Positions 49,452 to 58,677 of a stretch of 64,000 bases of DNA are shown piece by piece. The notes under the pieces were generated by a model. That model was not told where the DNA came from and made no database searches. It saw only the letters and a program-made list of their open reading frames with translations. The stretch is from the NCBI GenBank assembly GCA_023213235.1, contig CP096137.1, positions 1,627,047 through 1,691,046 on the forward strand, given 5' to 3'. Both the position numbers and the translations under genes were made by a program. The stretch's first letter is position 1, and every line of letters begins with the position of its first letter. This DNA comes from Elusimicrobiota bacterium (GTDB taxonomy: Bacteria; Elusimicrobiota; Elusimicrobia; UBA1565; UBA9628).

Positions 49452-50699
49452 TTAAGAGGCGGAAACGAGCGCTTTCAGGCGCTCGAGCCCGGCGCGGACG
49501 CTCTTCTCGGAGGGCCCGAAGGAGAAGCGCACGTGGGAGCGGAAGCGGGATCCACGCCCGGCGCGCCGCTTGCCGGGATTCACGTCGAAGAACTCGCCGG
49601 GCACGACGATGACCTTCGACTCGAGAGCCTTCTTGAAGAAGCCCATGCCGGTATTAAGGGGCCGTGGAAGCTTTTCAACGCTGCCCCAGCAATAAAACGT
49701 GCCGTCGCCGGGCCCGTCGAGGATCACGCCCATCTTGGTCAGCTCGGCGCGCATCAGTTCGCGCTTGGCGCGGAACGCGGCCTGGAGGGACGAGGCCTCG
49801 GCGGCGGCGCCCTTCTCCGTGAGCAGCTCGGCCGCCGCGCGCTGCAGCGGGCGTGAACCGCCGCCGTCGAGGAAGGAGCCGGCGGAGGAGACGGACTCGA
49901 TGACGGCCTTGGGGCCGACGATCCACGACACGCGCCAGCCCGGATAGCGCCAGTTCTTGGTCAGGCCGTCGAGAAGGATCACCGGATCCTTGTCGACGTC
50001 CTCGACGACGGCGGCCGCGCTGACGGGCGAGCCGTCGCCGTTCCAGACGTAGTGCGAGTAGAACTCGTCGAAGATCGTCGCGCAGTCGAGCTTGCGGGCG
50101 ATCTCGACCCATTTCGCGAGCTCGGGGCCGGAGATCGTCCGGCCCGTCGGGTTGGACGGGTTCGACAGCAGCAGGGCCCCGAGACCGCGTCCTTCGATCT
50201 CGCGGCGCAGCGCCTCCGGCGGGAACGCGTAGGAGGACTCCGGCTCGAGCAGGATCGGGATCGACGCGAAGGACCGGAAGATGTCGAGCAGCTCCTCGTA
50301 GGCCGTGTAGTCGGGCAGGAAGTGCCCGAGGTTGACCTGGCCGAGCGCCGCGGCCGCGCGCGTGAGCGCGGCGCGACCGCCGCCGGCGATCGAGACGTTG
50401 TCGGCCGTGTAGCGGCTCTTCATGCCCTTGCGGTAGCGCGCGTTGTAGAGGTCGGCGACGGCCTGGCGCAGCTCCGGCAGCCCCGCGACGGGGGCGTACT
50501 CCTGGTCGGCGGGGTCGATCGAGACCGACCCGCGGCGCGCGGGCCCTCCGGGCAGCGGCCCCGTCTCCGGCATGCCCTGGCCGAGGTTCGACCACGACGC
50601 GTCCGAGGCCTTGTACCCGAGCTTGGCGGCCTCGGCCATGACGTAGATGACGCCCGTGCGCGGCACGGCGCGGAACGAGGGAGGGGGAACGTCGCTCAT
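49452..50699 (-). CDS. Class I/II PLP-dependent aminotransferase (aspartate/aromatic-type)
   Basis: ATG at 50699 (MSDVPPPSF) overlaps the upstream stop (ATGA). Shows LLLSNPSNPTG and KNWRYPGWRVSW (PLP lysine region) at aminotransferase fold length. Confidence 0.65.
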   Translation of the reverse strand: MSDVPPPSFRAVPRTGVIYVMAEAAKLGYKASDASWSNLGQGMPETGPLPGGPARRGSVSIDPADQEYAPVAGLPELRQAVADLYNARYRKGMKSRYTADNVSIAGGGRAALTRAAAALGQVNLGHFLPDYTAYEELLDIFRSFASIPILLEPESSYAFPPEALRREIEGRGLGALLLSNPSNPTGRTISGPELAKWVEIARKLDCATIFDEFYSHYVWNGDGSPVSAAAVVEDVDKDPVILLDGLTKNWRYPGWRVSWIVGPKAVIESVSSAGSFLDGGGSRPLQRAAAELLTEKGAAAEASSLQAAFRAKRELMRAELTKMGVILDGPGDGTFYCWGSVEKLPRPLNTGMGFFKKALESKVIVVPGEFFDVNPGKRRAGRGSRFRSHVRFSFGPSEKSVRAGLERLKALVSAS

Positions 50700-51826
50700 T
50701 TGGGCTCCAGGGCCTTGTCGAAGGCGGCGCGGAATTCGGCGGCGTCGGAGAAGCGGGCGGCGGGGTCGGGCGCGAGAGCCTTCTTGAAGAAAAGATCGAT
50801 CGACAGAGGCAGGGTCGTGCGGCGGTTGCTCGCGGAGACGAACTCGCCGTCGGCCTTGGCCTTCGAGTCGTCGAAGGGCGTCCGGCCGACGAGCAGGAAG
50901 TAGGCGGTCGCGCCGAGGGAGAACACGTCGCCGCGCGGGCTCGCGACGCCCTCGGGCGCGGCGCAGCCGTCGAACGACGTCGGCGGGCCCGGAGGCAGCA
51001 GGGAGAGCACGGCGTCCTTGTCGAAGACGAGCGAGTCGGGCGAGACGCCGCCGTGGCCGTGCCCGGAGGCGTGGACGGCGCCCACGAGCGCGCAGGCCTG
51101 GGCCATCACGCGGCGCACGAACGCGGGCTCGAAGGGCCCGCGCTTGGAATACGCCTCGACCAAGGTCTCGACGCCTTTCAGCCGCTCGGGCCGCGCCCCG
51201 CGCTTGGAGACGGGCACGTACGCCAGGCCCTGCGCGGCGGCCAGCGGCGAGGACGCCTCCTCCTCCTGCTTGCCGCGGGCGAACAGGAAGGCGGCGCCGC
51301 CGAAGACGGCGACGAGCCCGGCGAGATAGGGGACGGCCGACGGGCGGCGGCGCTTGGCGGGGGCTCGGAGGCCGGCCCGCCGAGGGGATCCGCCGCGCGA
51401 GCCGAGACAGGAGGGACGGGCGCCGGGCCCGGCGCGGGGTGCGGAGCAGGACGGCGGCGAGCTCGTTCTTGCGCGCCAGGTGGAGGTAGTCGCGAATCGG
51501 CGTCTCGGAGAGGCCGCTGACGAACGGAGGATTGCGCGCGCCGGCGTCCATCAAGGCGCGCGCGTTGTCGAGGACGCCCTCGAGCTCGGCGACGGGCGCG
51601 CCGCCGAGGCGGACGCTCCGGACGGCCTGCTCGTACACGCTCGCGCAGGCCTGGCTGAAGACTCCGAGCGCGTGGGCGCACTGCTCCTGCGTCCTTCCCT
51701 TCCCGCAGACCGCGGGCTCCCGCGCGGCGACGAGGCCCGGACGGCAGTACTGGGCGCCGGAGATCCGCGTTTCTCCGGCGGAGCCGGGGGCGGCGAGGAC
51801 GGCGAGAAGGAGCAGGGCCCTCACGA
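50696..51826 (-). CDS. Membrane-anchored protein with extracytoplasmic N-domain and C-terminal degenerate (pseudo)kinase-like domain; boundaries uncertain
   Basis: ORF 50696..51217 shows HGGVSPDSLVF (HRDLKPxN replaced) and DVFSLGATAYFLLVGRTPF. Upstream are the TM helix AVPYLAGLVAVFGGAAF and a signal-peptide-like VRALLLLAVLAAPGSA near 51826. At least one frame break. Confidence 0.35.
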
Positions 51827-56697: not shown

Positions 56698-57713
56698 TAC
56701 TGAACCTCCATGAGCCCGCCGCCCCACGCGAGTCCCGCGCCGAGGACCGCGTACACGATCTTGTCGCCCTTGTGCAGCGTGTCGAGGCGCTGGGCGACGG
56801 CCGAGGGCATGCCGCCGGCGGCGATGTTGCCCTGCGTCTCGACGTTGTGGATGTGGCGCTCCTCGGGCAGGCCCAAGTGGCCGATGATCGAGTCCATCAT
56901 GACCTTGTTGGCCTGGTGCGTGACGGTGTAAACCTCGTCGGCGTAGAGCTTCTTGGCGGCGGCGACGGCCTCGAAGGTCTCGACGGTCTTGCGGATCGAG
57001 AACTCGCGCACCTTCGCGCCGTCCTGCCAGAAGTGCTTCGTGCCGTCGACGAGGACGTCGGTGGCGCCCTCGGAGGCGCTCTCGAAGACCATCGGCTCTA
57101 TTTTCAAGCGGCCGGGGTGCTTCATCGAGCACAGCTGCGCGGCGGCGCCGTCGCCCCAGATGTAGCCGTCGATGGAGCCCTCGGAGTAGTCGGTGCGCGT
57201 GGTGTAGCAGGCGGTCTGGATCGTCAGCGCGAACTCGGGCCAGGCGTCGTCGCGCAGGTCGGAGAGATGCTTCATGTGGCGCGCGAAGGACGAGCACGCG
57301 GTGTTGAGGTCGGCGTGGGGGCCGGACCCGACGCCGAGCGCCTTGGCGACGTAGTTCGCGCAGGAGGGGACGGGATCGAAGGGGATGTCGGAGTTGCAGA
57401 GGACGAGCCCGATCTGAGAGGGCTTCACTCCCGTGCGCGCCAACGCCTGCTGGGCCGCGCGCACCGCGAGCGTCACCGGCGTCTCGCCGCGCGACTTCGC
57501 GTGCGTGATCGCCGCGAGGAAGTCCCTGTTCTTCGTCGACTTGATGTACTCGCGCGAGAGCACCGAGCGGCGCTCGTGGATGCCGAGGCGCGAGAGGCAC
57601 CAGTCGGGACCCTTCTTCAGGCCGACTTCCTCGTGGAGGAACTTGTTGTCGATGACGGTCTCGGGAAGGGCCCAGCCCATCCCGAGGACGTTGACGGGGG
57701 GACGCTGGCTCAC
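56697..57713 (-). CDS. fabH: 3-oxoacyl-ACP synthase III (FabH-like initiating KAS)
   Basis: GTG at 57713 overlaps the upstream stop. Shows LNTACSSF (active-site Cys), THQANKVM (His) and GNIAAGGMPSA (Asn). Confidence 0.65.
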   Translation of the reverse strand: MSQRPPVNVLGMGWALPETVIDNKFLHEEVGLKKGPDWCLSRLGIHERRSVLSREYIKSTKNRDFLAAITHAKSRGETPVTLAVRAAQQALARTGVKPSQIGLVLCNSDIPFDPVPSCANYVAKALGVGSGPHADLNTACSSFARHMKHLSDLRDDAWPEFALTIQTACYTTRTDYSEGSIDGYIWGDGAAAQLCSMKHPGRLKIEPMVFESASEGATDVLVDGTKHFWQDGAKVREFSIRKTVETFEAVAAAKKLYADEVYTVTHQANKVMMDSIIGHLGLPEERHIHNVETQGNIAAGGMPSAVAQRLDTLHKGDKIVYAVLGAGLAWGGGLMEVQ

Positions 57714-58677
57714 GCCAGCCCCGAGATCGCCTCGCCGCCGTCGACTCGCAGGATCGAGCCGTTGGCCCAGCGCAAGGTCGGCCCGCACAGGCCGAGGATC
57801 GTCTCGGCCACGTCCTCCGGCGTGGTGAGCCGGTGGAACGGGTTGCGGATGCGCGCCGAGGCCTTCATCAGGTCGAAGTTCGGGATCGCGTTGCCGGCCG
57901 GCGTGTCGGTGATGCCGGCCTGGACGATGTAGGAGGACACGCCGTAGGGCGCCAGCTCGACGGCCATCGCGCGGCAGGACGCCTCGAGCGCGGTCTTGGC
58001 GGCGGAGACGGCCGCGTAGCCCTTCCACGCGATCTCGTTGCCCTCGGAGGTCATCGCGACCGTGCTCGCGTTCTTCGCGAACATGCCTTCCTTGGTCAGC
58101 TCGCGGGTCCAGAGCAGGTAGTCGTAGCCCATCATGAAGATCGTCTTCTTGAGATCGTCTTCCGTGAGAAGCTCCTCGCGGTACGGGATGCGGGAGTCGG
58201 CGAGCGTGTGGAGGGCGTCGCAGCCCTTGTCGTGGAACGCGGTGTTGATCGCGGCCTTGACCTTGTCGGCGGGCAGGCCGAGGGCCTCCGCCAGCCCCTT
58301 GATCGCGATGCCGCGGAAGTCGGGGTCTTGTCCTCGATCATGAGGCGGCAGGAGCCGGCCGCGATCGACTGCATGAACAGCCGGACCTTGCCGGCGCCGC
58401 AGTTCTGCGCGATGGACTCGAACACCTCGCCGCGGCCCTCGTCGTCGAAAAGGTTGACGTTGTGGGTGACCAGCTTCACGCCGTAGGAGCGGATCTCGTC
58501 GAAATGGGGCTTGATCACCGTCTCGACGGTGCCTTCTTTGTCTTTGTGGCCGATGAGAATGTTCAGGCCGGCGCGTGCCAGTCTTTTAGACGTCGCCAGG
58601 CCGAACCCCGACGAGCCGCCGAGCACGACCGCCCACTCGCCCGAACCGTGAAAATCCAACGGGTTTTTCTGATCCAT
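57710..58677 (-). CDS. Enoyl reductase, FabV/TER-like (motif VLGGSSGFGLA); frameshifted near 58340
   Basis: ORF 58132..58677 (N-terminal part) joins ORF 57710..58135 (C-terminal part). The GxSSGxGLA signature resembles FabV/trans-2-enoyl-CoA reductases. The reconstructed protein is shorter than typical FabV. Confidence 0.45.

Follow-up and report, generated by a model that had tools for sequence, protein, structure and literature searches.

What carries the growing acyl chain in a fatty-acid-synthesis operon that seems to have no carrier gene? The question is raised by a minus-strand gene cluster in a 64,000-nucleotide stretch of an Elusimicrobiota bacterium (GenBank assembly GCA_023213235.1, contig CP096137.1, positions 1,627,047 to 1,691,046), which we refer to throughout as the window. 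The cluster encodes condensing enzymes, reductases and a dehydratase of the kind found in type II fatty acid synthases (FAS), together with a PlsC-family acyltransferase fused to an AcpS-type phosphopantetheinyl transferase (PPTase). An earlier annotation made from the letters alone (the sequence-only reading) had remarked that no acyl carrier protein (ACP) gene was evident. Our answer is that the gene lying between the elongating ketosynthase gene and the fusion gene, whose 300-residue product we call X300, very probably encodes a cryptic ACP, judging by its conservation and predicted structure. With less assurance, we lean towards the view that the surrounding genes make up an autonomous type II FAS, built around this unrecognised carrier of its own and kept across free-living Elusimicrobiota.

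As far as canonical carriers are concerned, the sequence-only reading was accurate: a search with a small ACP hidden Markov model (HMM) of the six-frame open reading frames (ORFs) of the window and of 967 kb of related loci returned no canonical ACP at E≤1. What it had skipped is X300, an ACP-fold candidate inside the locus. Homologs of X300 rank first, if weakly, against the small ACP HMM in the window, in the related loci L001 and L002, and in three of four remote loci. AlphaFold2 (AF2) models X300 with a predicted local distance difference test score (pLDDT) of 81 at full length and 83 for the N-terminal domain (residues 1-140, encoded at 53718-54137), which is predicted to consist of helix I, a long loop, a helix at residues 61-74 that starts at Ser61 (codon 53955-53957), a beta-hairpin insert and two more helices. 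When the model of this domain was compared with the PDB by Foldseek, nearly all of the top 50 matches were ACPs or carrier domains, from mitochondria and from E. coli, Thermotoga, Thermus, Helicobacter and Vibrio among other sources (target-normalised template modelling scores of 0.60-0.81, probability up to 1.0). It was the isolated domain that was informative, the full-length model giving only weak helical-bundle matches. Alignment of X300 with seven ACPs by hhalign set its residues 27-78 on residues 4-54 of AcpP, with Ser61 opposite Ser36, the phosphopantetheine serine.

The pattern of conservation points in the same direction. Ser61 lies in the motif GMGIES and does not vary among 33 close and 9 distant family members, which reach down to 24% identity, and the N-terminal 140 residues as a whole are near-invariant. 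Identity to X300 is 70-95% among the 120 clusters listed, and an exhaustive HMMER search of 1.84 billion representatives found 26 clusters only, none with a known family. In a tblastn survey of the gene content of about 60 related loci, X300 was generally more conserved than the adjoining fusion; no other gene of the locus is as strongly conserved. The remainder of the protein (residues 141-300) is predicted by AF2 to form five long helices; it is basic (isoelectric point 9.3), and this C-terminal half has no significant structural match. Helix II of X300 is much less acidic than that of AcpP.

The gene that follows X300 encodes the fusion, which the sequence-only reading had described as unusual. 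It is indeed real, unusual and conserved: both Pfam domains score above their cut-offs (PF01553, 31.6 against 23; PF01648, 35.1 against 25), and precomputed Pfam assignments place both in 113 of the 120 homologs listed. The N-terminal acyltransferase half carries NH-x4-D and YPEAGRSRSGW, and the C-terminal AcpS-type half (approximately 51824-52459) carries GND, KEA..K and SLSHSGR; these motifs show little or no change across 15 sequences with identities as low as 35%, the invariant residues being N68-H69-x4-D74, P162-E163 and R166 in the former and G263-N264-D265, K321-E322-A323 and K326 in the latter. The PPTase half is of the single-domain type, not the Sfp type; AcpS structures are its sole PDB matches, and it remains below threshold against the equivalog acpS model (19.5 against a cut-off of 59.8). 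From these residues both halves look catalytically competent. Homologs of the fusion fall into more than 120 clusters (57-91% identity), and every named one comes from metagenome-assembled genomes (MAGs) of Elusimicrobia. In the literature on Elusimicrobia FAS, ACP and PPTase, including a preprint on groundwater Elusimicrobia, we found no description of a cryptic carrier or of a PlsC-AcpS fusion.

The remaining enzymes are those of a type II FAS, and the gene set named by the sequence-only reading holds up, Pfam giving every named domain and all of the genes lying on the minus strand. They comprise an enoyl-ACP reductase (ER), a FabH-like initiating condensing enzyme (KSIII), a 3-ketoacyl reductase (KR) of the short-chain dehydrogenase/reductase (SDR) type, a 3-hydroxyacyl dehydratase (DH), a FabF-like ketosynthase (KS) and a FabD-like malonyl-CoA:carrier-protein transacylase (MCAT), and the catalytic motifs of all six are retained in the translations: Cys/His/Asn in KSIII, Cys/His/His in KS, Y-x3-K (YRATK) in KR, Y-x6-K (YAAVSAAK in the window translation) in ER, HFPGNPVVPG in DH and GHSMG in FabD. 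None of them reaches its NCBIfam equivalog cut-off, the scores amounting to about a third to 55% of it (KSIII, fabH, 101 bits against 292; KR, TIGR01830, 169 against 298; DH, fabZ, 60 against 155; KS, TIGR03150, 269 against 494; FabD, TIGR00128, 110 against 261; ER, FabL, 103 against 328), which supports the earlier view that this is not a standard housekeeping fab operon. In Pfam, only the C-terminal domain of KSIII passes, ACP_syn_III being below its cut-off; orthologs of DH also match ApeI-like; and PF12241 ranks second to adh_short_C2 on ER. The reductase had been called FabV-like, an identity that we reject: FabV is about 400 residues long and has a Y-x8-K motif, whereas relatives carry an intact ER of 321 aa, the motif in the window is Y-x6-K, and FabL and FabI give the best matches.

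From domain content, conserved residues and synteny we infer how each step of such a synthase might proceed. The AcpS-type domain of the fusion would place phosphopantetheine on Ser61 of X300, the FabD-like enzyme would load malonyl units onto X300, and KSIII would start the chain; KR, the FabZ-like DH, the FabL/FabI-like ER and the FabF-like KS would then extend it to a saturated acyl chain. The PlsC-family domain of the same fusion would finally take this chain off X300 and attach it to an acceptor in the membrane, for which a lysophospholipid is the simplest candidate. Because helix II of X300 is the less acidic one and its C-terminal domain is a basic five-helix structure, a module of this kind would need its own co-evolved priming, loading, elongating and unloading enzymes, and this need would account both for their being encoded side by side and for the strong divergence of each; their low NCBIfam scores fit co-evolution with a divergent carrier.

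Several observations weigh against an X300-based synthase. X300 had no match in Pfam (E≤0.01) or NCBIfam and no relevant one in a PDB profile search, and 16 members of its family had none in Pfam even at E≤10. The hhalign pairing with ACPs is weak (P = 0.02, probability 2%), the Foldseek E-values, obtained on a predicted model, are modest (0.025-1.7), and the full-length AF2 model is of low confidence at residues 52-61, the loop just before Ser61. The NCBIfam PlsC models do not match the acyltransferase half of the fusion, so the acceptor of this domain may be other than lysophosphatidate. Finally, the ER gene is frameshifted in the window as given, and a real pseudogene there, though less likely than an assembly error, would tell against the synthase as well.

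The lack of a match to any PP-binding sequence model also favours a different account, in which X300 is a scaffold, a regulator or a lipid-binding protein and the enzymes use canonical AcpP in trans. A long helical bundle makes up more than half of the protein, whose weak structural matches are to soluble forms of alpha-helical pore-forming toxins and to SMC-type coiled coils, and many secondary type II systems are known to borrow housekeeping components. We nevertheless consider this account unlikely. It would leave unexplained why a dedicated AcpS-type PPTase and a dedicated FabD are present in every locus, why X300, the PPTase and FabD also occur as a stand-alone trio, why a serine at the start of helix II is invariant, and why the list of fold matches consists almost entirely of ACPs.

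The ER frameshift is one of three within these 12 kb, the others being in the pseudokinase and in the TPR-kinase gene, both of which lie between the fusion gene and FabD. A DNA alignment shows four C residues at 58322-58325 in the window against five in three relatives. The TPR-kinase gene breaks in a C run at 47325-47329 (sequence at the break, 'ACGCCCCCTACATGGCGCCCGAG'), with Pkinase positions 1-160 and 162-252 in two frames. The relatives have C5 and the kinase break is also in a C run, so both shifts are probably one-base deletions, that is, assembly errors of long reads, and we hold true pseudogenisation of the two genes to be less likely; such homopolymer errors would give false pseudogenes in this assembly. 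The pseudokinase changes frame near 51400 (approximately 51340-51400). Elsewhere in the window, a P-type ATPase gene (8018-10296) is likewise split between two frames (approximately 9226-9406), and the tail of the TPR ORF at 48391-49398 looks out of frame, with a possible shift at approximately 48450.

Table 1. Features of the module and of its immediate surroundings, listed along the minus strand (window coordinates)
Feature	Coordinates	Strand	Remarks
Small membrane-anchored Cys-containing protein, 167 aa	58752..59255	-	Directly upstream of operon; no Pfam match
Sigma-70-like promoter match	58684..58713	-	Just upstream of ER start codon; consensus match only
ER, enoyl-ACP reductase, FabL/FabI type	57710..58677	-	Pfam adh_short_C2, Enoyl_reductase; insertion of ~70 aa
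KSIII, FabH-like initiating condensing enzyme	56697..57713	-	Pfam ACP_syn_III_C; GTG start overlaps ER stop codon
KR, 3-ketoacyl reductase, FabG-like SDR	55975..56700	-	Pfam adh_short 2.5e-41
DH, 3-hydroxyacyl dehydratase, FabZ-like hot-dog	55487..55978	-	Pfam FabA 2.8e-9
KS, FabF-like elongating ketosynthase	54174..55490	-	Pfam ketoacyl-synt N and C domains; ATG overlaps DH stop codon
X300, proposed carrier, 300 aa	53235..54137	-	Between KS and fusion gene; predicted ACP fold in residues 1-140
Fusion of PlsC-family (LPLAT) acyltransferase and AcpS-type PPTase	51821..53230	-	Pfam Acyltransferase and ACPS above cut-offs
Membrane pseudokinase	50696..51839	-	Signal peptide, Cys-rich domain, transmembrane helix, kinase C-lobe; N-lobe largely missing
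Class I aminotransferase, AspAT/DapC-like	49452..50699	-	PF00155 3.6e-34; ATG overlaps pseudokinase stop codon
Secreted TPR protein	48391..49398	-	Weak TPR matches; promoter-like site 49405-49433 before gene
TPR-Ser/Thr kinase	47019..48322	-	Pkinase match; split gene
FabD-like malonyl-CoA:carrier-protein transacylase	46069..46989	-	Acyl_transf_1; last conserved module member
Antitoxin, Xre family, downstream of FabD	45593-46027	-	Pair with RES-domain toxin
RES-domain toxin	45237-45596	-	Xre/RES pair directly downstream of FabD

How far this arrangement extends was surveyed with one genome per GTDB species, which gave 59 loci, nearly all of them from Elusimicrobia or unclassified MAGs and one labelled Acidobacteriota. 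The core ER-KSIII-KR-DH-KS-X300-PlsC/PPT is present with all seven genes in 41 loci and is collinear in 40 of these, and its order is kept in rare metagenome lineages in which the identity of X300 has dropped to 24-40%. In 27 loci no more than 200 nt separate the fusion gene from the FabD gene that follows it, and in another 20 FabD lies 0.2-6.7 kb downstream (47 in total), so that the sequence-only reading was mistaken in setting fabD apart as a separate gene at 46069; it belongs to the conserved module. In three loci the X300-PlsC/PPT-FabD trio is all that is left, the neighbours of X300 there being all ACP-handling activities, and in the one examined (L055) the trio is flanked by Tol-Pal genes on one side and a PBP1 gene on the other. 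Duplication of KSIII is seen in some lineages (L003, 3375-7204; L037, L042, L035 and L044), a subset of them with a GNAT acetyltransferase between KR and DH, and L003 also contains a 118-aa ORF without a family match.

This distribution bears on whether the module is the primary, housekeeping FAS of these cells, which would then have no canonical AcpP-based system and would make all of their membrane fatty acids with it. The set is complete (MCAT, KSIII, KR, DH, ER, KS, carrier, AcpS-type PPTase and PlsC-type acyltransferase), and its inheritance looks vertical, the identities of all genes declining together over the 59 species loci; X300 is conserved at the level expected of an ACP, and the L055 trio sits among envelope housekeeping genes. 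In remote lineages acetyl-CoA carboxylase or carboxyltransferase genes belong to the cluster: the distant lineage L004 (40% GC) has a linked single-chain acetyl-CoA carboxylase of 1833 aa (13652-19153), and the distant JGI 3300047160 contig has a carboxyltransferase, a second PlsC-like acyltransferase, a CMAS-type methyltransferase and a further ApeI-like dehydratase. A tandem FabA-like dehydratase (double hot-dog, 360-400 aa) lies between KSIII and KR in approximately 10 Elusimicrobia loci and two distant lineages (for example L036 5422-6552, L038 5447-6538, L028 943-2058, L031, L046 and L067 2270-3457). This gene is absent from the subclade of the window, which suggests an ancestral capacity for unsaturated chains that was lost there.

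However, true FabF, FabH, FabG, FabZ and FabD orthologs are curated to pass the equivalog cut-offs that these enzymes miss by far, and in a cell with no other FAS the AcpP-dependent enzymes would all have had to co-evolve with a carrier that has lost most of the acidic residues of helix II; canonical AcpP is also needed by LpxA/LpxD, PlsX and LipB. The module is, moreover, found only in some lineages of Elusimicrobiota. A role as the sole housekeeping synthase thus comes close to an even chance in our estimation but stays short of it, and between the cell's main FAS and a second, parallel one the odds are roughly even. The broader proposal, that a clade of free-living Elusimicrobiota lacks canonical AcpP altogether and runs all of its lipid synthesis on a PF00550-invisible carrier primed and unloaded by the PlsC-AcpS fusion, we regard as speculative and rather doubtful.

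The sequence-only reading had instead seen in the cluster an aminolipid or alkylamine pathway, of which the aminotransferase and perhaps the pseudokinase would be integral parts. The start of the aminotransferase gene does overlap the stop of the pseudokinase gene in the same tightly packed gene string, and orthologs (79-89% identity) lie between the fusion gene and FabD in seven close relatives, abutting FabD directly in three (L006, L011 and L057) and 8 nt from it in a fourth (L059). But these are the only 7 of about 60 loci with the gene; it is missing from the 27 loci in which FabD comes straight after the fusion gene and from every distant lineage, and in other genomes the slot is filled by unrelated genes, namely TPR proteins, an ankyrin-kinase, an alpha/beta hydrolase, a radical SAM enzyme, a class V aminotransferase and unknown proteins. 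The enzyme reaches no NCBIfam cut-off, and its best PDB matches are DapC (Rv0858c) and the aspartate aminotransferase (AspAT) of Thermus, an alpha-amino-acid type; with these as its nearest solved relatives, we rejected its assignment as an alpha-oxoamine synthase (AOS) or a class III omega-transaminase. A dedicated AOS-type pyridoxal-phosphate enzyme kept with the lipid genes was not found.

The pseudokinase is kinase-dead, as had been claimed, but its standing as a component of the module does not survive comparison. Pkinase matches only a C-lobe remnant (17.8 against a cut-off of 31.7), with HGG in place of HRD, and neither the complete N-lobe nor the HRD of an active Hanks-type Ser/Thr kinase was found at 50696-51839. 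Its sole positional ortholog, in L020, is an intact protein of 453 aa that follows PlsC/PPT and likewise has HGG and GFG. Judged by gene order, the stretch from the fusion gene to FabD is a variable slot, and the aminotransferase, the pseudokinase, the TPR protein and the TPR-kinase that occupy it in the window are cargo specific to the lineage. With the aminotransferase and the pseudokinase accessory, the aminolipid idea loses its basis, and we consider it improbable. The pseudokinase and the TPR protein at 48391-49398 both have a secreted, Cys-rich N-terminal part, which recalls the Cys-containing protein at 58752-59255.

A further set of neighbours hints at another output. In L001 and L002 (1531-4487) a type III polyketide synthase (PKS), a methyltransferase and an FAD monooxygenase are encoded directly upstream on the same strand, and the latter two lie near the module in L009 (717-2587). 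Phenolic-lipid systems in which a starter-unit FAS feeds long acyl chains to a type III PKS are known as Ars in Azotobacter and Srs in Streptomyces, and the trio resembles SrsABC, so lineages of the L001/L002/L009 type may, by analogy, make alkylresorcinol-type phenolic lipids from the product of the module. As an account of the module itself, supplying starter units seems to us very improbable: such genes occur in 3 of about 60 loci and are absent from the window and from the distant lineages, and the enzyme conserved at the output end is an acyltransferase of the PlsC type rather than a PKS. A self-sufficient FAS with X300 as its carrier and a PlsC-family domain at its end remains the reading that we prefer.

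In the window, whose GC content is approximately 70% (a high-GC Elusimicrobiota MAG), a third-position GC frame plot assigns all coding signal from 46069 to 59600 to the minus strand. Two proteins encoded in the window match NCBI entries from an Elusimicrobiota MAG (3.8-Mb contig) at 100% identity. Along the string that runs from ER to the aminotransferase, neighbouring genes share 1-16 nt or leave gaps of at most 36 nt, which makes their co-transcription plausible. A promoter scan found 5 sites in 16 kb where 0.4 would be expected by chance, although consensus matching of this kind says nothing about function; a strong promoter-like site (46036-46064, 11 of 12 matches) lies between FabD and the Xre/RES pair. 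Homologs of the 167-aa protein (48-65% identity) are encoded immediately upstream of ER in nine close loci.

Outside the module, TPR genes are plentiful across the window. The region 16000-38900 encodes a series of very large proteins with TPR repeats, among them those at 27478-31674 (1398 aa) and 35925-38828 (967 aa), and contains DUF4932 in two ORFs and a PhyH-like dioxygenase (25195-25962), and a stretch of 75-81% GC spans 16-24 kb. Two proteins, at 11012-12553 (plus strand) and 32163-33725 (minus strand), join TPR repeats to a tetrapyrrole methyltransferase (TP_methylase) domain, an unusual combination.

If X300 is a true carrier, it would represent an ACP family that no sequence model detects, and pipelines based on PP-binding would call such clusters carrier-less. 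Were the clade as a whole to lack AcpP, the ACP would not be universal in sequence among bacteria, and genome mining by PP-binding would systematically miss a family of carriers. Whether AcpP is still present in these bacteria becomes, through this locus, a testable question in an uncultured phylum. The partner enzymes, strongly diverged and to a similar degree, may offer a natural example of an orthogonal FAS that would be useful for engineering, and the PlsC-AcpS fusion hints that priming of the carrier is directly and physically coupled to termination of the chain and its insertion into the membrane.

Compared with known systems, the module has the activities, superfamilies and catalytic residues of the canonical type II FAS of E. 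coli (plsX-fabH-fabD-fabG-acpP-fabF with fabZ, fabI, acpS and plsC), from which it differs in enzymes that score well below the NCBIfam equivalog cut-offs, in the joining of AcpS and PlsC in one polypeptide, and in a carrier of 300 aa that is invisible to PF00550 and is predicted to have a beta-hairpin insert, a less acidic helix II and a basic helical C-terminal domain. The rhizobial AcpXL/LpxXL cluster, in which a dedicated ACP, fab paralogs and an acyltransferase supply the very-long-chain fatty acid of lipid A, is similar in having a second dedicated carrier, its own dehydratase and ketosynthases, and a terminal acyltransferase acting onto a membrane lipid. In contrast to X300, however, AcpXL is a recognisable small ACP, its cluster lacks a dedicated PPTase, MCAT, KSIII and ER, and its acyltransferase belongs to the LpxL rather than the PlsC family. 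Aryl polyene (APE) clusters resemble the module in combining a type II FAS-like set with dedicated carriers and with a PlsC-family acyltransferase (ApeD), and the DH of the module matches ApeI-like. APE clusters have no ER and contain a ketosynthase/chain length factor (KS/CLF) pair, an AMP-ligase, a thioesterase, a glycosyltransferase and LolA/MMPL export genes, whereas the module has an ER, a single KS plus KSIII, and its own MCAT and PPTase; as the APE accessory genes are also absent from the window and from L001-L004, we rejected membership in this class.

The fusion has parallels in type I systems. The alpha-subunit of fungal type I FAS ends in a C-terminal AcpS-type PPT domain, so that there, too, an AcpS-type PPTase is fused to lipid-synthesis machinery and the synthase primes its own carrier; in the module, where the type II system is dissociated, the PPTase would be joined to the terminal membrane acyltransferase instead of to a megasynthase. 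Myxobacterial polyunsaturated fatty acid (PUFA) synthases carry a 1-acylglycerol-3-phosphate acyltransferase (AGPAT) domain, a PlsC-family domain likewise attached to fatty-acid synthesis and suggesting direct hand-over into glycerolipid, although those enzymes are multi-domain and type I/PKS-like, with tandem canonical ACPs and a separate Sfp-type PPTase.

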